42,237 nt of DNA, from positions 1 through 42,237 of IMG/VR virus record IMGVR_UViG_2880361019_000002. The stretch is one strand, 5' to 3'. This document shows, one piece after another, positions 1,406 through 20,005 of this stretch (positions are counted from its first letter, which is position 1; each line of letters starts with the position of its first letter). The position numbers were made by a program, and so were the translations under genes. A model generated the notes under the pieces. That model ran no database searches. It saw only the letters and a program-made list of their open reading frames with translations, and had not been told where the DNA came from. The stretch comes from a virus. Lineage: Duplodnaviria; Heunggongvirae; Uroviricota; Caudoviricetes.

Positions 1406-2944
1406 ATGAGCAGCTCACTTCCTGACGATATCAATGCACTGAAACGTCTCCTTGCCGAACAGGAGGCGCTGAACCGTGCCCTGCAGGAAAAGCTGAACGA
1501 GCGTGAACGCGAAATAGACCATCTGCAGGCACAGCTGGATAAGCTGCGCCGGATGAACTTCGGCAGCCGCTCGGAAAAAGTCTCCCGTCGTATCGCACAG
1601 ATGGAAGCTGACCTGAAGGCACTTCAGAAAGAAAGTGATACCCTTACCGGTCGGGTTGACGACCCGGCCGTGCAGCGCCCGCTGCGTCAAACCCGCACCC
1701 GCAAACCGTTCCCCGAATCACTCCCCCGCGATGAAAAACGGCTGCTGCCGGCAGCGTCATGCTGCCCGGAATGTGGAGGCTCGCTGAGCTATCTGGGTGA
1801 GGATGCCGCCGAACAGCTGGAGCTGATGCGCAGCGCCTTCCGGGTTATCCGGACTGTACGTGAAAAGCATGCCTGTACTCAGTGCGATGCCATCGTGCAG
1901 GCCCCCGCGCCTTCACGGCCCATCGAGCGGGGTATCGCAGGACCGGGGCTGCTGGCCCGCGTGCTGATCTCAAAGTATGCAGAGCACACCCCGCTGTACC
2001 GCCAGTCTGAAATGTACGGCCGCCAGGGCGTGGAGCTGAGTCGTTCACTGCTGTCGGGCTGGGTGGATGCATGCTGCCGGCTACTGTCACCGCTGGAAGA
2101 AGCGCTTCAGGACTATGTGCTGACTGACGGTAAGCTCCATGCTGATGACACGCCTGTCCCGGTGCTGTTGCCAGGCAATAAGAAAACGAAGACCGGGCGG
2201 TTATGGACCTACGTTCGTGACGACCGTAACGCCGGGTCAACGCTGGCGCCGGCGGTGTGGTTCGCTTACAGCCCGGACAGAAAAGGCATCCATCCGCAGA
2301 CCCATCTTGCGGGGTTCAGTGGTGTACTGCAGGCGGATGCATACGCCGGGTTCAACGAGCTGTACCGGGATGGCCGGATAACGGAAGCCGCCTGTTGGGC
2401 TCACGCCCGCCGTAAAATCCACGATGTGCACGTTCGCACCCCGTCAGCCCTGACGGAGGAAGCGCTGAAACGGATCGGCGAACTGTACGCCATCGAGGCA
2501 GAGATAAGGGGAATGACGGCGGAGCAGCGCCTTGCCGAACGTCAGTTGAAAACGAAACCGCTGCTGAAATCCCTGGAAAGCTGGCTGCGTGAAAAGATGA
2601 AAACCCTGTCGCGACACTCAGAACTGGCGAAAGCGTTCGCATACGCCCTGAACCAGTGGCCGGCGCTGACGTACTATGCAGATGATGGCTGGGCTGAGGC
2701 GGACAATAACATCGCTGAAAATGCGTTGCGGATGGTCAGTCTGGGCCGCAAAAACTACCTGTTCTTCGGTTCGGATCATGGAGGAGAGCGGGGAGCGCTG
2801 CTGTACAGCCTGATCGGGACGTGCAAACTGAACGGAGTGGAGCCAGAAAGCTACCTCCGCTATGTCCTTGACGTCATAGCCGACTGGCCGATAAACCGGG
2901 TCGGCGAACTGCTCCCCTGGCGCGTAGCACTGCCGACTGAATAA
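1406..2944 (+). CDS. IS66-family transposase (orf3/TnpC)
   Basis: 512-aa ORF with N-terminal coiled coil/leucine zipper, CxxC...CxxC zinc-finger motif and DDE-type core typical of IS66 transposases. Confidence 0.85.
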
Positions 2945-2981
2945 CACATCCCCGTCAATACGGTTCTTGCTGCACGCTTAC

Positions 2982-4478
2982 GAATTGCCGCACTCTGGTC
3001 TTCCAGTTTCTTATTGACGGTCTGCGTGATTTCATTGCTGACATCCGTAATGGACGTCCTGATTTCAGCCAGGTCAGGCGCAAGCTGACCGTTATCAATC
3101 TGCGTCCACAGCTCCTGAGCCAGATGGGTTTTCCCTATCTCGCCTTTGAAAAAATCCAGATAGCCGGATGCATCATCACTCGGCTGACCAACAGCCTCCA
3201 CGAATGCCGATTTGCCAACGGTGTTCACACTGCGAACGTAAAAATAATAATCATGGCCCGGTTTGATATTGATACTGGCGGCTATCCAGTACAGCGCCGT
3301 ACCAAGATAGCGGGCTGTGGTTTCAACCTGCCTGATATCGGTAATCCGCTTTTCCGAGAACCAGAACTCAAACTGTACCGTCGGATCATAAACCGCAAGA
3401 TGCGGCGTGGCGGTTATCTGAAAATAGCCCGGTGTCAGCTCAATCCGAGACGGCGCTGCCGGTGCGGCAATCCGGAACGATACCGACGCCGGATCGCCCT
3501 GCTGCCCCCGGGCATTTGCCGCCCGGACTGTCAGCCTGTAGTTTCCCAGCGCCAGCTGCCTGAAGCGGTATGTGGTTTCCGTCGTCCGGGCTGTGCTGAC
3601 CAGCCGCTCACTGCCGTCTTCTGCTGTCACGGTCAGACGAAGCAGGAAGCTCACGCCCTTCACCACCTTCGGCGTATCCCAGCGCGCCAGCACCTGATAT
3701 TCCCCGCTGTCTGCGGTGACTTCGGCAGTCAGGTGCTGCACCGCTGGCGGCGTGACACCATTCACCGTGCCGCTCTGGTCGCCGTCAAAGTGCGCCCCGT
3801 TATCCACGATGGCTTCTTTTTCCGGCACGTGCTGCACCGCCGTGATGGCAAAGGTGCCGTCCGTGTTTTCCCGGATGGAGACACAGCGGAACAGGCGACG
3901 ACGCAGTGACGGCAGGGAGAGTCCCCATACACCGTATGTCTCCACACCATCAGGCAGGGTGCTGACCTGTATCCGGTCCGGCGCGGGGTGTGCGGTGATG
4001 TCCACACTCACCGGCTTACCGCTGCCGTTAATCAGGTTCACCGTGGCGGCACCTGTCTCCGGCAGGGTCACCTCACGGTCCAGTGTCAGGGTGCGGCTGG
4101 CGGCATCGATGGACAGGATACGTCCGCCGGTCATGGTCCCGGCATAGTCGTTATCACAGATTTCAATAATGTCACCGGGTGTGTGACGCAGCCCCTGTGA
4201 CCCGAGCGTGAAATCCACCGTCTGCGTTTCCAGCAGTCCGGTCTTTATCACCCACAGCCCGGCACTGTGGGCCTGACCGCGACTGGTGCAACCGAACGCA
4301 TCCATCTTCAGCAGGTTGCGCCCGTAGCGCAGTATGGCTTCCGGGTCTTCCACCAGTTCCGTGGAGGTCTGCCAGCCGTTCTGCGGGTCGGTGTAATTCA
4401 CCTCCACCGCCGTGTGGCGGTCCTTCAGGGCGCTGAAGCTGTAGCGAAACCCCACGCCGTTATCATCCACCACCACAT
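2982..4478 (-). pseudogene. J: Tail tip / host-specificity protein J, central fragment (C-terminal third missing, cut by IS66 end at 2981)
   Basis: Translation matches the central region of lambda gpJ (e.g. [12 protein letters not shown]..., [19 protein letters not shown]...); reading frame runs into the IS66 terminus. Confidence 0.8.
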
Positions 4479-4671
4479 TGCGTATTTTCATGAAAGGAGA
4501 TCACTCAATAACTTCCATCGAGATCGGGTAATAACATTTGAACAGATCGCTGAATAACATCGATGGAGATCACTTTTGACTCATTTTGTTATTCAGTGAT
4601 CTCCATCAATGTTATTGGAACTTCACAGGTGTGTTGATCTGTATCTTTTGCCATTCCGGTAAAGGATACCT

Positions 4672-6213
4672 ATGCCAACAGTTCCAATTTCTATGAGAAA
4701 ACTTAAAGAAATTCTTAGGCTTAAATACGGTGTTGGACTCAGCCATCGACAAATTGGTCGTAGTCTTGCAATCTCCCCTTCCGTTGTATCCAGATATGCT
4801 AATCGGGCGGCTCAACTTGGCATAAAGCAGTGGCCCTTACCTACAGGATGGGATGATACAAAACTAAAACATGCGTTCCTTCAGACCCAGGTTAAGATGA
4901 AGAAGCACTCTCTGCCTGACTGGGCTACAGTACACCGGGAACTGCGTAATAAATGCGTGACGCTGCAGCTACTCTGGGAAGAATACTGTGAGCGTAATCC
5001 AGGCGGTTTTTACAGCTATAACCATTACTGCCGGATGTACCGTGAATGGCTCAAAACCACTTCACCATCAATGCGTCAGGTACATAAAGCTGGCGAAAAA
5101 CTTTTCGTTGATTACTGTGGACCTACCGTTGGCGTTACCGACCCTGAGACCGGAGAAATAAGAACTGCTCAGGTCATCGTAGCTGTTCTCGGGGCATCAA
5201 GTTACACATGGGCAGAGGCCACCTGGTCTCAGCAGCTTGAAGACTGGGTGATGAGTCATGTTCGCTGCTTCCAGTGGTTGGGTGGCGTTCCTGAACTTGT
5301 TGTTCCGGACAATCTGAAAAGCGCCACATCCAGGGCATGTAAGTATGATCCTGACGTTAACCCTACCTACCAGCAGATGCTTGAGCATTATAATGTCGCA
5401 GTTTTGCCTGCGCGGCCACGTAAACCGAAAGATAAAGCCAAAGCTGAAGTTGGCGTTCAGGTTGTTGAACGCTGGATCATGGCCCGAATCAGGCATGAGA
5501 TCTTCTACAGCCTTGCATCGCTTAATCAGCGCATTCGGGAGTTGCTGGAAAGACTGAATAACAAAATAATGCAGAAGTTGGGTTATTCACGTGCAGAACT
5601 CTTCATCCAGCTTGATAAACCCGCACTGAAGCCTCTTCCTGAAGCCAGTTACAGTTACACCCTGGTGAAGAAAGTCAGAGTTCATGCCGATTACCACGTG
5701 GAAATCGACAAACATTACTACTCGGTTCCATGTTCGCTGTTAGGCCAGCAACTGGAAGCATGGATCTCCGGAGAACTGGTAAGACTCTTCAATCAGGGGC
5801 AGGAGGTTGCTGTGCACCCGCGCAAGCGTACTTATGGCTACAGTACCCGCAACGAGCACATGCCTGAAGCTCATCGACAGCATGCCACCTGGACGCCAGA
5901 GCGTCTTCTGGAATGGGCGGGGCACATAGGCAGTGAAACTCATAGTTATGTGCTTCATATACTGAACTCTCGTCCACATCCGGAACAAAGCTATCGCTTC
6001 TGCCTTGGACTCCTGAACCTTCATAAAAAATACAGTAAAGCCAGACTTAATGCAGCATGTGCAAGAGCTCTGAAAACAAAGGTATGGCGTCTGTCAGGTA
6101 TTAAATCGATCCTGGAAAAAGGTCTGGATAAACAACCTGTTCAGGATCCAAAACCAGATCTGTTATCCACGATGGAACACGAAAACGTACGCGGCAGTGA
6201 GTATTACCACTGA
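4672..6213 (+). CDS. istA: IS21-family transposase IstA
   Basis: 513-aa ORF with N-terminal HTH and integrase-core (DDE) region, followed 11 bp later by istB. Confidence 0.8.
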   Translation: MPTVPISMRKLKEILRLKYGVGLSHRQIGRSLAISPSVVSRYANRAAQLGIKQWPLPTGWDDTKLKHAFLQTQVKMKKHSLPDWATVHRELRNKCVTLQLLWEEYCERNPGGFYSYNHYCRMYREWLKTTSPSMRQVHKAGEKLFVDYCGPTVGVTDPETGEIRTAQVIVAVLGASSYTWAEATWSQQLEDWVMSHVRCFQWLGGVPELVVPDNLKSATSRACKYDPDVNPTYQQMLEHYNVAVLPARPRKPKDKAKAEVGVQVVERWIMARIRHEIFYSLASLNQRIRELLERLNNKIMQKLGYSRAELFIQLDKPALKPLPEASYSYTLVKKVRVHADYHVEIDKHYYSVPCSLLGQQLEAWISGELVRLFNQGQEVAVHPRKRTYGYSTRNEHMPEAHRQHATWTPERLLEWAGHIGSETHSYVLHILNSRPHPEQSYRFCLGLLNLHKKYSKARLNAACARALKTKVWRLSGIKSILEKGLDKQPVQDPKPDLLSTMEHENVRGSEYYH

Positions 6214-6224
6214 TACGGGATCCA

Positions 6225-6974
6225 ATGATGAATCATCTTTACGAACAACTGACCGCACTTAAACTCACCGGCTTCCGTGATGCGCTTAAAAAGCAACTTG
6301 CTCAGCCGGGCACATACCAGGAGCTGGGCTTCGAAGAACGCCTGTCATTACTGACAGCAGAAGAACTAACCTGCCGTGAAAACAGGAAGGCAGAGCGTCT
6401 GATCAAACATGCACGGTTCAGACTTAATGCTGAGTTATCAAAGCTGGATTATCGTAACAATAGAGGGCTGGACAGGGCCCTCATCCGTTCACTCAGTCAG
6501 GGAAACTGGTTAACCCTGAAACAAAATATTTTACTGACCGGGGCCACCGGCAGCGGTAAAACGTTCCTGGCATGTGCACTTGGTCATAATGCCTGCCGAC
6601 AGGGATACAAGGTCTACTATTATCGCCTTAAAGCGCTGATGGAACAGTGCTATCAGGGGCATGCTGATGGAAGATACAGCAAACTTTTGACCAGGCTGAA
6701 TAATAGCGATCTGCTGCTTCTGGATGACTGGGGGCTGGAACCTCTCTCATCAGAACAGCGTAGCGACCTGCTGGAAATAGTGGATCTGATGTACCAACGA
6801 GGCTCAATCATCGTAGTGAGCCAGTTGCCGGTGGAAAACTGGTACAAAATGATCGGAGACTCCACACATGCGGATGCCATCCTAGATCGACTGGTTCATG
6901 GCAGTATCAAGATCGAACTTAAAGGAGAATCAATGCGGAAAATACAATCTCCGTTGACCGAAGGAGATCAGTGA
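6225..6974 (+). CDS. istB: IS21-family ATP-binding helper IstB
   Basis: 249-aa ORF with Walker A motif GATGSGKT and DnaA/IstB-like AAA+ core. Confidence 0.85.
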   Translation: MMNHLYEQLTALKLTGFRDALKKQLAQPGTYQELGFEERLSLLTAEELTCRENRKAERLIKHARFRLNAELSKLDYRNNRGLDRALIRSLSQGNWLTLKQNILLTGATGSGKTFLACALGHNACRQGYKVYYYRLKALMEQCYQGHADGRYSKLLTRLNNSDLLLLDDWGLEPLSSEQRSDLLEIVDLMYQRGSIIVVSQLPVENWYKMIGDSTHADAILDRLVHGSIKIELKGESMRKIQSPLTEGDQ

Positions 6975-7059
6975 AGGTAATTTAAAAACGGTTCTGTGAA
7001 AGTGACACGAACCGATCTCCATCGATGTTACTCACCGATCTCCTTCACGGTAATACGCA

Positions 7060-8189
7060 ACCACATCGCAGTTGGTGTACGGCCACACCACATCCGACGG
7101 GCGGTCCTGAACGAACGTCAGCGTCTGGCCGTTCCATACCGGCATACAGCGCATCGCCGAGCAGAAATCACTGAGAACGTCCCACGCCTTACGCTGTTGT
7201 GACAGGTACGCATTAAAGGTCATCCGCGGCTCTGTGCCCCCGAAACCATCCGGGACCGTCTGGTCGCAGTACTGCGCAATGGCATACAGCGCCCATTTGT
7301 CCACATCCGCCGCCCCCAGACGTTTTCCCATGCCATAGCGCGGGTGAGTCAGCATGTCCCACAGGCACCAGGCCGGGTTGTTGCTGTATGCCGGTTTCAG
7401 ACTGCCGTCCCAGATGCCGCTGTAAGTGCGTTTTTCCGGGTCATAGTTTGACGGCACCTGGATGATGCGACCTCGGATATGGTAGTTCACCGTCATCTGC
7501 TGACCGCCAAACTGCTCCGCATCCACCTGCAGCCCCACAATCGCCGTGTTCGGGTAGCACTGTTTCACATCGATGATTTCGGTGTATGACGACCAGAGCG
7601 TCTTATTCTGCAGCTGGTCCGAGGTGCTGTCCGCTGTCTCCCGGACCATCCGGATGTTAAAGGGCCGCTCAGGCAGATTATCCAGAATCACCGACGCCAG
7701 GTACTGTGAGGTGGTCTTGCCGTTAATGGTGACATCCTTTTCCGTCACCCAGTTACCGTTACGCTGCAACTGAATCAGCAGCCGGACAGAAGAGGGATTA
7801 CGGTCGCCCTTTGAGGTGGTCTCCAACAGTGACTGCACCCCGAAGGTGACCCGCAGGCGGTCAATGTTCGCGGATGTAATGGTGCGCGTTACCGGCTTTG
7901 CCTTCGTCACTTCCACGCCCAGTCCGGTTTCAGCTCCGGAGGACTCAAAGCCTTCCGGTGGTGTCTACTCCTGCTCCCCGGCACGCCAGACCGCGGTCAC
8001 ACCGTGTATCACGGGATTACCGTCCGTGTCCGTCAGCGGGGTTTTGTTCACCAGGATACTCTGCAGTCCCTTCACCGGGCCTTCTATCGGTCCCTCACCA
8101 ATCGCATCAATCACACTCATCATCTGCGTGGATTTGAGATTGTCCTTCGCCTCGCGCGGTGTGTGCGCCTTGCCGCCACCTTTGCCCAT
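7060..8189 (-). pseudogene. J: Tail tip / host-specificity protein J, N-terminal fragment with in-frame amber codon
   Basis: Starts MGKGGGKAHTPREAKDNL (lambda J N-terminus); TAG at 7965-7967 replaces the Gln of ...AGEQE-Q-TPPEGF...; frame continues unchanged to the IS21 junction. Confidence 0.8.
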
Positions 8190-9756: not shown

Positions 9757-10455
9757 TTACTGCGAAAGTTTATTAATGGAAAGGAAACCGCCAAAATTAG
9801 CCACCATGCCGCGCATCTCACACCCGCGCATGCACTTGCTGCATCTGTCCTTACGGATATCGGTGGTGGGTTTATCGAACTCATCCGCCACAGCCCCGCC
9901 CGTGTAACCACACTCATCAGAGCGGTAGGTCCACATACAGGTGTTCGCCAGCATGATACGACCGGGAAACAGCGCCCCGTCCGTCTCGGTCGGTGTGGCC
10001 AGCACAAACGAGGCCGTCATGGCTGTCAGCTGCGACATCTGCTCCACCACCCAGCGGTCGCTCAGCTCCTGCTCCGGGTCCGCTTCCGGATTGCCCGCCA
10101 CAAAATTCACCGCATCCAGAAAACGGGCATACACCCGGCGGCGGACCACCGTGGCCCCCACCAGGCTCTGCAGGTCCTCCGCCATTCCGGTGACAAGGCC
10201 AAACAGATTGGACACCGTCAGCGACGGTCTGGCACTGCTGCCCTTCCCGTTCATCTCAAAGCCGCTGCCGTCAATCGGGTACGCCTGATATTCACGCCCC
10301 TGCCAGGTGACCGGCTCCCCTTTTTCATTCAGTTCATTGCAGAAAAAATAGCGCTCACCGCCCTGCACCGTCAGGTCAATTTCCCAGAGCACCACCCGCG
10401 GTGACTGTTCTGATTTAACCGACTCGTTCAGGCTTTCTTCATGAATATTCTGCAT
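9757..10455 (-). CDS. L: Minor tail protein L
   Basis: 232-aa ORF nearly colinear with lambda gpL (VVLWEIDLT...GERYFFCNE..., C-terminal Cys cluster). Confidence 0.9.
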   Translation of the reverse strand: MQNIHEESLNESVKSEQSPRVVLWEIDLTVQGGERYFFCNELNEKGEPVTWQGREYQAYPIDGSGFEMNGKGSSARPSLTVSNLFGLVTGMAEDLQSLVGATVVRRRVYARFLDAVNFVAGNPEADPEQELSDRWVVEQMSQLTAMTASFVLATPTETDGALFPGRIMLANTCMWTYRSDECGYTGGAVADEFDKPTTDIRKDRCSKCMRGCEMRGMVANFGGFLSINKLSQ

Positions 10456-10796
10456 CAGTTCACCACCTGCTCAATCGTACAGCTGAAATCACTGTACCGG
10501 GCGTTATCCGTGACGCTCCACTCCCGGCACACCACCCTCACCGTCCGGTTATGTTTCGGCGGTCGCCACAAAAAGGCACGGTAACCACCATGCCAGGATA
10601 AAAATTCATCCAGCCAGCGCCGGGTTGACTCATCCGTCACCCGGAACACCGCCTGAAACGTCTTCAGTTGAGGATTCAGCCCTGTGGGGCGACGCTGTTC
10701 ATAACCGTCACCAAACCGTACCCTCGCCACCGACGGTTTCTCACTCACCTGCATCCCTTCACGCGGGACCAGATGCAGCGTTTTTATCTCAGCCAC
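10455..10796 (-). CDS. M: Minor tail protein M
   Basis: 113-aa ORF in gpM position and size, stop overlapping L start. Confidence 0.8.
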   Translation of the reverse strand: MAEIKTLHLVPREGMQVSEKPSVARVRFGDGYEQRRPTGLNPQLKTFQAVFRVTDESTRRWLDEFLSWHGGYRAFLWRPPKHNRTVRVVCREWSVTDNARYSDFSCTIEQVVN

Positions 10797-11391
10797 TCAG
10801 CATTCCTCCGTCACGTCGCATGGACAGCATCACCGCCTGCACCCGCTGGTCAATCAGTTGCACAAGGCTGCCTGCCGCCTCCGGCCCTATCTGGCCATTA
10901 GTCCCGTCATTCTGAATGGCGATATGGTAGACCGGGGAATACACCAGACCCGCACTGCCGTACATACTACCCACCGCGCGCACACCCAGCGAGCCATCCG
11001 CCGCCCGCGTCAGAGGCATAATGGCTTCAGGTCCGGCCTCCCCCATCAGCCCGGCCCCTTTTGCAAAGGCAAAGTACGTGGGCGTATCCACAATACTGTT
11101 GCTGTACGCACTCAGGTTTGCCGAGGTATACACGCCGCCTTTTGCATTGGCCACCGCCCCGCCCAGCCAGTCACCAATGCTGCCGAGAAATCCTCCCGCA
11201 CCGGACATACCGTTTGCCGCCGTCTTAATTCCGTTGACAATCGCGGCATTCATAAGAACTTTTGATATTTCCTGCAGCACTGATGAGGCCCAGCTGCGCC
11301 ATTCCACTTTATTTCCGTTCAGCATCTCCGTGATGTTATTCACCATCCCTGAGATCCCCTCCGTCGCAAGCTGTGCTGCCTGTGAGGCGTG
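10789..11391 (-). pseudogene. H: Tail tape-measure protein H, C-terminal remnant (5-prime part replaced by truncated IS1)
   Basis: Gly/Ala-rich C-terminal tape-measure-like sequence directly upstream of M; homology to IS1 stops immediately after the insA stop at about 11391. Confidence 0.65.
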
Positions 11392-11667
11392 TTACCGACT
11401 GCGGCCTGAGTTTTTTAAGTGACGTAAAATCGTGTTGAGGCCAACGCCCATAATGCGGGCTGTTGCCCGGCATCCAACGCCATTCATGGCCATATCAATG
11501 ATTTTCTGGTGCGTACCGGGTTGAGAAGCGGTGTAAGTGAACTGCAGTTGCCATGTTTTACGGCAGTGAGAGCAGAGATAGCGCTGATGTCCGGCGGTGC
11601 TTTTGCCGTTACGCACCACCCCGTCAGTAGCTGAACAGGAGGGACAGCTGATAGAAACAGAAGCCAC
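11392..11667 (-). CDS. insA: IS1 InsA
   Basis: 91-aa ORF identical in translation to the insA ORF of the second IS1 copy ([18 protein letters not shown]...). Confidence 0.9.
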
Positions 11668-11722
11668 TGGAGCACCTCAAAAACACCATCATACACTAAA
11701 TCAGTAAGTTGGCAGCATCACC
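11392..11722 (-). mobile_element. IS1, truncated copy (IRL plus insA only)
   Basis: IS1 left inverted repeat GGTGATGCTGCCAACTTACTGAT (minus strand, ending at 11722) and insA; sequence departs from the intact IS1 copy (22572-23339) right after the insA stop. Confidence 0.85.
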
Positions 11723-12445
11723 GACATCCCGGGCGTACTGCAGTTTCTGTCTGAACACCCCGGCAGGCGGTTCATTCGACTGGGTGGTTGTGTACACCAC
11801 AAATCCTTCCGGACGGGAGGCAAGCCCGCCGATGGCTTCACGTAGCATGTCTTCCGCTTTGTACTGCTTGCCAAACAGCCACAGTTCATCAATCAGTGTC
11901 CCCACGGACTTGATACCGGACACCGTATTCGGATCGGCTGCCACCACCTTCAGGGTGGTGTCCGTCACCCGATGGGTGATGGTCCGGATATGTGTCTACA
12001 CCTGACAGAGGTCATCCAGATCATCGTCCCGTCGTACCATATCCCTGGCAGGGTTGAAGGCGTTAGCCGCCACCTCCACGGTCGGGGCCAGAATGGTGTA
12101 GCCCGCCGCCTGCCGCCAGTTCAGTAACAGCGCCGTCATCATGATCCCCGCGGCCAGCGTGGACTTACTGTTTTTCTTGGGGATAAGGATAAACACTTCC
12201 TTGATATGGCGAACACCGGTCTGCGCATCGTAGGAGCCAAACAGGGCCGCCACCAGGTCAAACACCCACGGTGCACAGGACTCCCCGAATGTCGGGCTAC
12301 CCGGTGCATCCACAATTCGCAGTTGTTTAAAAATCGCCAGTGCATGTGCAGCCAGGTCCGGATAAATCGGAGCCGGAATAATCGACAGCCCCTTTTTCAG
12401 GCGCTCTGCCCAGTCCGGACATGCCGTGCTCCATACAGGTATCAT
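11723..12445 (-). pseudogene. Terminase large subunit, N-terminal remnant with in-frame amber codon, truncated by IS1
   Basis: Walker-A-like KKNSKST motif; start overlaps terS stop; TAG at 11996-11998 is in frame with the downstream continuation; reading frame ends inside the IS1 IRL. Confidence 0.65.
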
Positions 12446-14033: not shown

Positions 14034-14375
14034 TCAGGGTGCAGAAGGACTAAAGATAAACGTTTTCTTCACGCCTTTACACGGCCTGTCCTTCTCAAAT
14101 CTCCATTTTGCCATCGCCTTTACAACCTGCTCATCAAACAAATGGTGCGGCTCTGAACGGATAAACTCAATTCGGGTGACAGTACCATCAGCACCAATAT
14201 CAAACTTCACATCAACCCGTCCCTTTATATAATTTGCCGCTGCATAGGCCGGATATTGTGGTAATGCCTTAACCAACTGTCGGGGCATATCTGTTTTATG
14301 TTGCGTACAGCCCATAACCAGAGAAGACAACAAAATAATTAACGGAAGATTTCTTTTCATTTTCATTCCCGGCAC
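14034..14375 (-). CDS. Lipoprotein with TonB C-terminal-like domain
   Basis: Signal peptide plus lipobox LVMGC; C-terminal YP...G.V...F.I...G....I...S....FD..VV.A...WRF pattern of TonB_C domains; true start may be MKMK at about 14366. Confidence 0.55.
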   Translation of the reverse strand: MPGMKMKRNLPLIILLSSLVMGCTQHKTDMPRQLVKALPQYPAYAAANYIKGRVDVKFDIGADGTVTRIEFIRSEPHHLFDEQVVKAMAKWRFEKDRPCKGVKKTFIFSPSAP

Positions 14376-17661: not shown

Positions 17662-19515
17662 TTATGATGATGCCGGTGCATTTATCTCCAGCACCAGACT
17701 TTCTATCTCAACGCCATACGCTGCATTTTTTGTAACATCCGTCAGCGTCAGCGCATTCAACCCCAGTGTCAGACTGTCTTTTATGACCTGGAATGCCGGG
17801 CCAGCCACTCCATTCAGTTTCGGAGTAACCGTGGCACTGCCGGCGGTGAACACCAGCTCCAGCGTCTGCCAGTCGTTACCGTAATCGCCGAACTCCCCCA
17901 GCTTCGTGTTTCCGGCTTTCCTGTGATGCATCAGATTCACTCTGCCGTCAGTGGTCTGAGTGAAGTACGACATCAGGAACGGATTACCGGTACCCGTCAT
18001 CGCCACACCATCAGGAACGGGAGCATCCGTATACAGATAAATCCCCAGCCCGAACTGATTGTTGGTCAGTGCGCCTGACAGGCGGAACTTACAGGTCAGT
18101 CTGCCGCCCTGTGTCAGCAGGGTAATTGCGTCATCCACCGGATGCGTCAGGGACCAGGTTTTATTGCTCTGCTTGGCAATCTTAAATACACCATCTGACA
18201 ACTGAATTCCGCCATCCTTAATGCTCCAGCCCTGCGCAGCAGCCTCTCCGGCTGCCGGCAGCAGGGAGATTGTGCGAACGGACGTATCTGCAGACGGACC
18301 CGATGGCGTGTTGCCGCCGGGCGAGGGTTTGATTTCCGGTGCCTTACCACTGATGAAGGCTGAGGTGCGCCCGGCTGCGTTCAGAATAGCGGTTGCCAGA
18401 CGATCCGGAATAATGCTCCTGCGCGCCCATGAACTGAAATGTGTCGGGCGGTTTGATGATACCTGGTTTCCATTCGTTCTCGATGCCGCACCGTAATATC
18501 CTGATGCCGGAATATCCGGATCTTCTGCCGGCGCGTTAGTGGCGGTATTGACGCCGTTACCGTCTGTCATGAAGGGCACAAAATAAACGCCCTCACTCTC
18601 CCTGTTTTTATACCCGCCGTACACGGTGTCGTACTGGGTAGCGTATGTATTTTTCCAGTAATACGTCGTGTCACCACAAATCCACGGCACATCTGCAGCA
18701 CTGCCACCATGGCACTGCGCGTTAAACACGGAGAGGTCAGCACGAAACTGTGTCAGCATGGCTGTAAACAGCGCAGGTTGCTGTGCGTGGGTGGCGGCGC
18801 TCATGTCAAACTCACCCTGCATCCAGCAGACGGCCAGCAGAACGTTTTTGGGATTTTTCTGCAATGCCGCTTTTGTGCGGGAAATCAGATCCTGATATAA
18901 CGGCTTGCCCACCCCCCAGCGTGCCGAATCCTGACTGGCCCCCGTGGACTCGCTGAATGTCCCCTCCGCGCCCTGGGTAAATGCCGAACCACCACGACAG
19001 CATGGTACCAGCAGGATCCCCGCGTTATTCGGGATATACGGGAGCAGTTTTTTGGCAATATGTAAACCCTGGCCGACACAGCCGTACTGCCCTTTGCTCA
19101 GGTCAGCCCTCGGATGATTCAGCGTACTCATATCCTGCACATCATGCAGACAGTGGTCAGCCGGAATAATATCGTTATATCTGCAGGCAGCCCCGCCCGG
19201 CGTCACTGTACTGCGGCGCGCCAGCTGTTTAATGCGCGGATCCGGAGCATCGTATGAATCCGGCAGCGGAAGCCCTTCACAGTAAGCCATGGCATTGGAC
19301 TGCCCGGCCAGTACGATGACGTAGTACCAATCCGGCTCAGATGAAGGGCCGACCTGTGGCTCTCCTTCAATAGCCACCGCCTGCATCAGTGTGTACGGCG
19401 TAATGGCAACCGGTCCTCCGTATGGCTGCCAGCCCTCTTTCAGTTTGTGTGTCAGCTTTTCCGCAAGGTCTGACGGCGACGCCGCCCTGACAACATCATA
19501 ATGTTTAATCGACAT
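17662..19515 (-). CDS. nanS-p: Prophage-encoded sialate O-acetylesterase (NanS-p-like)
   Basis: 617-aa ORF; DUF1737-like N-terminus then SGNH esterase signature ([14 protein letters not shown]); position between tRNA region and lysis genes as in Stx phages. Confidence 0.75.
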
Positions 19516-19595
19516 CGAATTTCTCCCGTGTACAGGAACAGAGTTAAAAAGCCGGAATCAAATCGCAGGATGAACATCTGCCAGTGGCTGGTCGT

Positions 19596-19622
19596 AAAAA
19601 AAAGGCCGCGCCATGCGCAGCC
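19596..19622 (-). terminator. Intrinsic terminator upstream of nanS-p
   Basis: Minus strand reads GGCTGCGC-ATG-GCGCGGCC followed by TTTTTTTT (8-bp stem incl. one G-U, 8 U). Confidence 0.6.
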
Positions 19623-19837
19623 GGAAATAAAGGGATAACGATGATAGTTTGAGAAAAACAGAAATAACACTTTTGTGGCAAAGCATGGTGCCGGGTGCCT
19701 CCCGGTGAATTCAGCCGGTGTCACTGAACCCGCGTCGGCTTGCCTATAACATAATAAATGCTACCCACACCAGTCGCCCCTCCGCACAGGGGGATTCACC
19801 ATGCAGAAGTGTTTTTAATAAACAGCAAACAAAAAAA

Positions 19838-20005
19838 TCAAGCATTATGCAGGCTGTTTCTTTTTATCACCGGCCACAGCAATACCACAATGCCGCAGAC
19901 CAGCACCCCATCCGCCAGCACCGACATGATTCTGCTGGTGAAATCCACCATCACCACCAGAAACAGCAGGAGTGCAGCCACAGCCAGGCGCAGTTTTACC
20001 GTCAC
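19838..20005 (-). CDS. Small predicted membrane protein (about 55 aa), translationally coupled to upstream gene
   Basis: GTG start overlapping the TGA of the 20002-20463 ORF (GTGA), GGAGAA RBS; two hydrophobic segments (LRLAVAALLLFLVV, VLADGVLVCGIVVLLWPVI); not in ORF track (short). Confidence 0.35.
   Translation of the reverse strand: MTVKLRLAVAALLLFLVVMVDFTSRIMSVLADGVLVCGIVVLLWPVIKRNSLHNA

Follow-up and report, generated by a model that had tools for sequence, protein, structure and literature searches.

We analysed a window of 42,237 nucleotides (nt) of viral DNA (positions 1 to 42,237 of the IMG/VR record IMGVR_UViG_2880361019_000002), in which a truncated copy of the insertion sequence (IS) IS1 lies between the first part of a terminase large subunit gene (terL) and the last part of a tape-measure gene. 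The region is a lambda-like, Stx-phage-type (Pankowvirus-like) prophage of Escherichia albertii without stx genes, and 20,450 bp of the window are 100% identical to CP034212.1, the chromosome of E. albertii 2010C-3449. This strain is a stx-negative human isolate from 2010 of type ST5390, and its closed chromosome has 4,923,641 bp (PMC10673567). The terL frame, on the minus strand, begins at 12445 and abuts IS1 directly, because its last base is 11723 and the left terminal inverted repeat (IRL) of IS1 occupies 11722-11700; this is the arrangement given by a preliminary description of the locus, in which terL ran into the IS1 left end at 11722. The IS1 sequence then stops at 11391, and tape-measure sequence follows at once (Table 1).

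The terL remnant is closely related to the genes of known prophages. At the DNA level it is 99.7% identical to terL of E. coli E110019, the closest terL found, and a three-way protein comparison with TerL of E110019 and of Enterobacteria phage YYZ-2008 revealed only three differing positions. The ATPase domain was recognized by PF03354 (TerL_ATPase) with 47.4 bits (cut-off 23.7) over model positions 5-175 of 178. No nuclease domain was found in the remnant with Pfam, whereas intact relatives have PF20441, and the uninterrupted frame of about 553 codons is absent; the part that was lost comprises the last 312 codons, the nuclease half of the protein. The remnant also contains the in-frame TAG at 11996-11998 that had been noticed earlier. 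It replaces glutamine codon 150 (Q150*), which is CAG in both references, and is a point mutation of its own, independent of the IS1 event; L005 and L253, from other assemblies, have the identical TAG. The terL gene of E110019 (L008, 15067-16728), though the closest full-length one, is likewise a pseudogene, in which a stop has replaced a glycine codon near codon 360, and the portal gene of E110019 is frameshifted, so that the same module has decayed independently in another host. Identity of the internal stop of E110019 with the TAG in the window was considered and ruled out, as a different codon is affected.

The IS1 part is a perfect copy of the first 332 nt of the IS1A-type element of Escherichia and Shigella. 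Compared with the full-length IS1 in the same window, 332 of 332 bases are identical and the match then ends abruptly, so the cut right after insA that the preliminary description had placed at about 11391 lies exactly there. Thus 43% of the element remains. The IRL reads GGTGATGCTGCCAACTTACTGAT on the minus strand (ATCAGTAAGTTGGCAGCATCACC on the plus strand), is identical to that of the full copy and identifies the stretch as an IS1 left end. In the intact insA we found PF03811 (Zn_ribbon_InsA, 76.4 bits) and PF12759 (HTH_Tnp_IS1, 106.6 bits), and the break is located only one base past the insA stop codon TAA (11392-11394). Because identity to IS1 ends at nt 332, the stump has no insB' and no InsAB' DDE transposase; neither a right terminal inverted repeat (IRR) nor an 8-9 bp repeat of the terL target was found on the tape-measure side. 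In these respects (DDE domain, IRR and target duplication) it differs from complete IS1 and is an immobile fragment. It is known that IS1 without IRR is immobile and that InsA represses the IS1 promoter (PMC12903888). Hence the stump, which has one end and no transposase, cannot move. A programmed -1 frameshift at the retained A6C motif (AAAAAAC) is predicted to give a 110-amino-acid (aa) dead end in tape-measure-derived sequence without DDE domain, compared with 232 aa for the full copy. The insA gene and the tape-measure remnant share a frame with only the TAA between them, a coincidence that arose by chance. Because insA is intact and the promoter region is kept in the IRL, the stump could still encode the InsA repressor and might possibly add to the InsA pool.

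On the other side of the stump, the last ∼200 tape-measure codons (11390-10789) follow directly, in accordance with the preliminary description. TIGR01541 (tape_meas_lam_C) matched this remnant with 130.6 bits (cut-off 104.75) at model positions 167-332 of 332, which are those of the C-terminal domain, and PF09718 matched it with 41.2 bits. Its DNA is about 95-96% identical to the annotated 1080-aa genes of YYZ-2008 (L007, 8029-8630) and E110019. A full-length tape-measure protein of ∼1080 aa with N-terminal TMP_3/HK97_TLTM regions is not encoded here, while intact relatives have PF20155 and PF06120; the first ∼880 codons are lost. The gene caller starts the open reading frame (ORF) of the remnant at the ATG at 11346. 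Since the matches are long and near-identical, they are not chance resemblances.

The genes next to the two remnants show what the intact order was. The public collection has 2,758 blocks with the exact TerS protein, which in the intact relatives shown is always followed by the 553-aa TerL; the exact M protein was found in 789 blocks, and in the intact relatives shown it is always preceded by the 1080-aa tape-measure protein. In every intact relative shown, terS and M belong to one collinear module, in the order terS-terL-capsid-portal-...-tape measure-M-L-K-I-J. Because the flanks and their neighbours are collinear with intact relatives and TerS and M are parts of one module, a single deletion within the prophage is the simplest explanation. 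Alignment to intact relatives, which had been proposed in order to size the deletion, gave 11,369 bp against YYZ-2008 (L007, 8631-19999) and about 11,205 bp against E110019. Also gone are 436 bp of IS1 (nt 333-768) and the second of the two copies of its target duplication. According to the annotated references, the deleted interval also contains the genes of a 645-aa protease-capsid fusion, a 73-aa ORF, the portal, a head-tail connector, a head-closure protein, an HK97 gp10-like protein, the tail-completion and major tail proteins and a pair of tail assembly chaperones. The lost 11.4-kb block of YYZ-2008 has no match anywhere in the window. The earlier statement that portal, head and most tail genes are absent was therefore right for the portal, head, tail-shaft and assembly genes, and overstated for 'most tail', because the tail-tip block is retained as M, L, K, I and two fragments of J.

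Table 1. Positions of the terL-IS1-tape-measure scar and of related features in the window
Feature	Position	Strand	Remarks
Terminase small subunit gene terS, intact, 187 aa	12442..13005	-	PF03592 Terminase_2; immediately upstream of terL remnant
terL N-terminal remnant	11723..12445	-	723 nt; codons 1-241 of 553, ATPase domain only
In-frame TAG (Q150*) in terL remnant	11996..11998	-	CAG to TAG; Q in both intact references
Truncated IS1	11391..11722	-	nt 1-332 of 768; IRL, promoter region, insA and A6C motif kept; insB' and IRR gone
IS1 IRL, 23 bp	11700..11722	-	read directly from sequence
insA, intact	11392..11667	-	91 codons + TAA; Pfam domains, both above cut-off
A6C (AAAAAAC) programmed -1 frameshift motif	11410..11416	-	IS1 nt 307-313
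Tape-measure C-terminal remnant	10789..11390	-	last ∼200 of 1080 codons; stop 10789-10791
Minor tail protein M gene, intact	10455..10796	-	PF05939 Phage_min_tail; immediately downstream of tape-measure remnant
Full-length IS1, 768 bp	22572..23339	+	in ninG-like gene; intact 232-aa InsAB'; 9-bp target duplication TACGGCTTG
IS21-family element in J	istA 4672-6213; istB 6225-6974		

Because IS1 is repeated (two copies in the window) and repeats are a classic source of misjoins, we considered whether reads had been collapsed across IS1 copies, such that no junctions of this kind exist in the cell; the preliminary description had also named an assembly artefact as what would refute it. However, CP034212.1 is a closed chromosome (PMC10673567), and the junctions recur in other data. 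In contigs of SRR15338057, assembled from independent short reads, both unique flanks reach into IS1, by 25 nt on the terL side (L004) and by 30 nt on the tape-measure side (L011), each with 100% identity; ends just inside IS1 are the behaviour expected from a de Bruijn assembler at a repeat. A third assembly, GCA_043679955.1, spans the junctions: its 700-bp contig JBIDQJ010000168.1 (L253) contains the TAG and the terL/IS1 junction with 700/700 identity and 126 nt across the junction, and its 50-kb contig JBIDQJ010000144.1 (L010) runs through the whole 332-bp stump into the tape-measure and tail genes with 99.95% identity. Moreover, repeat collapse cannot yield a truncation at nt 332 with a unique flank. 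As both junctions are present at 100% in independent assemblies, they are not an assembly artefact, an explanation to which we give practically no weight. The 90-aa ORF specific to the junction was found in three assemblies only, all with the same structure. Neither the terL/IS1 nor the IS1/tape-measure junction was present in 5,426 complete E. coli genomes, and the exact tape-measure/IS1 junction did not occur in the metagenome collection; this confines the scar to a narrow lineage of E. albertii.

Taken as a whole, the locus is probably a scar of prophage decay, in which IS1 inserted into terL and an illegitimate deletion then extended from within IS1 to within the tape-measure gene. From the structure, IS1 would have entered terL by transposition, between codons 241 and 242 and pointing in the direction of the gene, with an expected 9-bp target duplication after codon 241 that reads CGGGATGTC on the coding strand. 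One deletion of ∼11.6-11.8 kb would then have removed IS1 nt 333-768 together with 11.2-11.4 kb of phage DNA; its product is seen directly, and the recombination process behind it is the presumed part. The unrelated CAG-to-TAG mutation, which is directly visible, placed an independent stop at terL codon 150. The IS1/tape-measure junction reads ...GAGGCGT|GTTACC... on the plus strand. Microhomology was considered at this junction and rejected, the parental sequences sharing 0 bp; slipped mispairing between short repeats is thus not indicated. Since neither deletion end lies at an IS terminus and no base is shared, the event was classed as illegitimate, i.e. homology-independent, recombination.

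The preliminary description had assigned the loss to an IS1-mediated adjacent deletion. IS1-mediated adjacent deletions were reportedly described by Reif and Saedler in 1975. A classical adjacent deletion (Shapiro-type intramolecular transposition) begins exactly at the IS terminus, and the IS stays whole. The present locus resembles the classical IS1 adjacent deletions at gal and other loci in that DNA beside IS1 is lost and the opposite flank is unchanged: collinearity with the references extends through the HNH endonuclease gene, terS and terL codons 1-241 as far as the IRL. It differs from them in that the deletion end is internal to the element (nt 332/333), so that the deletion does not start at an IS terminus, the IS is not intact, and the IRR and 436 bp of IS1 are lost. 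Because IRR and insB' are missing, IS1 was deleted along with the phage genes and was not driving the deletion from one of its ends. What stands of the earlier claim is that a deletion joins terL to the tape-measure C-terminus with IS1 at the scar; IS1 was itself cut by this deletion and did not demonstrably cause it. An independent case is the prophage of E. coli ESDR8 (L001, NZ_CM169472.1, 6490-8370), which has lost the same head/tail block from terL to the tape-measure C-terminus. There a nearly full-length terL is fused in frame, with a 4-bp overlap, to the last 77 tape-measure codons, and the fusion is annotated as a 627-aa 'terminase large subunit domain-containing protein'. ESDR8 differs from the window in having no IS at the join, breakpoints elsewhere (the terL end and the final 77 codons of the tape-measure gene) and an open fusion frame. 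Thus an IS is not needed to lose this block.

In the only form of the earlier idea that the structure permits, a transposase would have acted from inside the element. InsAB' would have paired the IRL with a cryptic end at nt 332, and intramolecular transposition into the tape-measure gene would have given terL'|IS1[1-332]|'tape-measure, with the rest expelled as a circle. The geometry fits exactly, as the IRL flank is untouched, the junction is blunt and without microhomology, and a deletion product would not be expected to have a target duplication; moreover, a potential source of transposase, the intact IS1 with its 232-aa InsAB', is only 10.8 kb away. A cryptic IRR-like end was looked for at nt 332. 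There, GCAGTCGGTAAC agrees with the IRR tip GGAGTCATTACC in 8 of 12 positions, which proved unremarkable in a full scan: among 1,391 internal IS1 positions and orientations, the 12-bp score was beaten by 8 and tied by 20, and in the 23-bp comparison the nt-332 end matches at 11 of 23 positions and 25 internal positions score higher. The end at nt 332 is therefore no better than dozens of internal positions, and the terminal GG is not matched. We know of no description of such a cryptic IS1 end. To follow recurrence, we used a pattern of IS1 nt 307-332 followed by a non-IS1 base, with the intact version as control. The truncation was found 0 times in 185,579 species-representative genomes (at least 120 intact matches), 0 times in metagenome contigs, where no positive control is possible, and once in viral contigs (at least 119 intact matches; 0 at three control positions), and is thus essentially absent from large collections with hundreds of IS1 copies. 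In 121 sampled loci, the ends of partial IS1 copies fall at a wide variety of positions, none of them 332, and a literature search on truncated IS1 returned nothing on an nt-332 break. A hotspot at nt 332 was accordingly not supported, the numbers being too sparse. With this evidence, a transposase reaction at a cryptic end seems quite improbable to us.

The single viral match (L132, IMGVR_UViG_651053022_000007, 905-1900) is an unrelated IS1 fragment that also ends at nt 331/332, and it counts in favour of a cryptic end. It consists of IS1 nt 207-332 between the N-terminus of a side-tail-fibre gene (52 aa) and an internal fragment of an IS2 transposase gene, in a patchwork which also includes a tail-fibre-assembly gene. 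Its junction shares at most 1 nt, so microhomology does not explain it, and the arrangement occurs in no complete E. coli genome. We regard it as a second case of haphazard joining and not as evidence of a site-specific reaction. A more far-reaching proposal is that IS1 has a preferred internal break after the insA stop (nt 331/332), by which InsA-only stumps are made that persist as a supply of repressor in trans. The hints at it are the two unrelated fragments ending there and the complete insA of the stump, which by its sequence would be expressible; we consider the proposal very doubtful. If it were true, InsA-only stumps (IRL, promoter and insA) would damp IS1 activity in IS-rich genomes.

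A history of several steps also has to be weighed, with homologous recombination between IS1 copies or with two prophages involved. The two junctions would have arisen at different places, for example through deletion between two lambdoid prophages or inversion of a large segment, and recombination in the shared 332 bp would have joined them later; the DNA lost would then not be simply 11.4 kb. In this connection, the IRL side of the stump in contig L010 of GCA_043679955.1 (2223-2956) is joined to fdoH-fdoI-fdhE and not to terL, with a G-to-A single-nucleotide difference at IS1 nt 27. This linkage reflects either IS1-IS1 homologous recombination (an inversion) in that strain or short-read misassembly of the 332-bp repeat, so it shows, or mimics, an exchange of IRL flanks between IS1 copies. 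The unequal identity of the two flanks to E110019 (99.7% for terL and about 96% for the tape-measure gene) would also agree with separate origins. However, such inequality is normal lambdoid mosaicism, and the fdhE linkage may be a short-read chimera through the repeat. The flanks in the window have the orientation, order and neighbours of one prophage, and chance restoration of these after an inversion is unlikely. Moreover, the nt-332/tape-measure junction needs an illegitimate join under any history. Because both flanks have single-prophage order, strand and neighbours, we treat the arrangement in the window as primary, and consider a multi-step origin unlikely. A link between the stump and the full-length IS1, by inversion or as a composite transposon, was likewise tried. 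The full copy is inverted relative to the stump, so that the IRLs point towards each other, with 10.8 kb of phage late genes between them. This link was rejected, as the genes between are collinear with the references, the full IS1 has its own 9-bp duplication, and the termini of the two copies face the segment with their bodies outside.

Several points weigh against an IS1 insertion followed by one illegitimate deletion. The mechanism and the order of events are read from a single end state, and 'illegitimate recombination' is a diagnosis by exclusion. The pre-deletion intermediate, a full IS1 at this terL site, was not found in the assemblies or E. coli genomes searched. In GCA_043679955.1, the terL/IS1 junction lies on its own 700-bp contig, apart from the stump linked to fdhE, and the local history may include IS1-IS1 recombination. 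Finally, the end of L132 at nt 331/332 is an unexplained coincidence and could hint at a preferred break site.

The remainder of the window is that of a defective lambdoid prophage. From right to left, mostly on the minus strand, the gene order begins with an integrase gene (40951-42237, plus strand), followed by an Ea22-like gene, RecT, an S24-type repressor, O and P; next are a ninG-like gene with the full IS1, a metallophosphatase, Q, one tRNA, a SASA esterase and the lysis genes, and then the HNH endonuclease, terS, the terL'/IS1/tape-measure scar, M, L, K, I and a broken J. The backbone is thus kept (integrase, S24 repressor, O/P, Q, lysis cassette, terS and tail-tip genes), and the virion genes are broken or missing: the morphogenesis block is gone, terL is truncated and has a nonsense codon, IS1 interrupts ninG, and J is split by elements of the IS21 and IS66 families. 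Such a prophage is unable to build heads or tails and hence produces no virions by itself. The J fragments are at 7032-7916 and 2860-4491, with the IS21-family element between them (about 4479-7059); an overlap of ∼7 bp in the reference at this insertion would fit a target duplication. Near 2990, the IS66-family element (ORFs 609-2944) cuts off the C-terminal end of J, and an IS3-family orfA is present at 1-426.

No stx genes were found in the window. Related phages carry stx between Q and the SASA esterase gene, and the corresponding interval here (19515-21068) has no toxin genes and contains a tRNA gene (anticodon CAT, 20679-20754, minus strand), an ORF with a TerB domain and a DUF3927 ORF. 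A second tRNA-like stretch at 20514-20647 is homologous to the tRNA region of ESDR8 and is not called by ARAGORN. An ORF of 590 aa (24681-26453, plus strand), antisense to the phage early-right operon, matches phrog_9230 (function unknown) over its full length and has no hit in Pfam or PADLOC; it represents a conserved cargo gene of phages whose role is unknown. A small ORF (14034-14375, minus strand), situated between the HNH gene and the lysis cassette, has a signal-peptide-like N-terminus and conflicting annotations, a TonB_C Pfam domain and a PHROG family labelled Rz-like spanin.

The annotated phages nearest to the window are Stx1a/Stx2c-converting phages and YYZ-2008, a Pankowvirus. With YYZ-2008 and related Stx1a/Stx2c-converting phages, the prophage shares the gene order and, in most late and early genes, 92-98% identity; it differs from YYZ-2008 by the absence of stx and of the 11.4-kb morphogenesis block and by four IS-related lesions. 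The three fragments at the scar belong to well-known families (IS1, HK97/Terminase_1-type TerL and lambda-type tape measure), and none of them is a complete, functional member. Inactivation of this kind is familiar from other hosts. The K-12 cryptic prophages DLP12, Rac and Qin are similarly inactivated lambda-like prophages. The Sp prophages of E. coli O157 Sakai are likewise lambda-like and are disabled by combinations of point mutations, IS insertions and loss of morphogenesis genes; frameshifts, deletions and inserted IS elements are common among the lambdoid prophages of this strain, and one such IS interrupts a terminase gene (PMC2669165). The present case differs from the O157 Sakai and K-12 prophages in its host, E. 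albertii, and in a junction that none of the E. coli genomes shares; the mechanism is no different.

The analysis gives exact coordinates for terL', the truncated IS1 and 'tape measure, three pseudogene fragments now called as four small ORFs, and has little significance beyond annotation. Because neither junction occurs in the complete E. coli genomes, the scar could serve as a PCR or k-mer marker of this E. albertii lineage. It also provides a caution for the reading of similar loci: the presence of an IS where DNA has been deleted is no proof that it brought the deletion about, and here the IS itself was cut. For the biology of these prophages, the locus represents ordinary prophage decay, already known in kind, and no new system.

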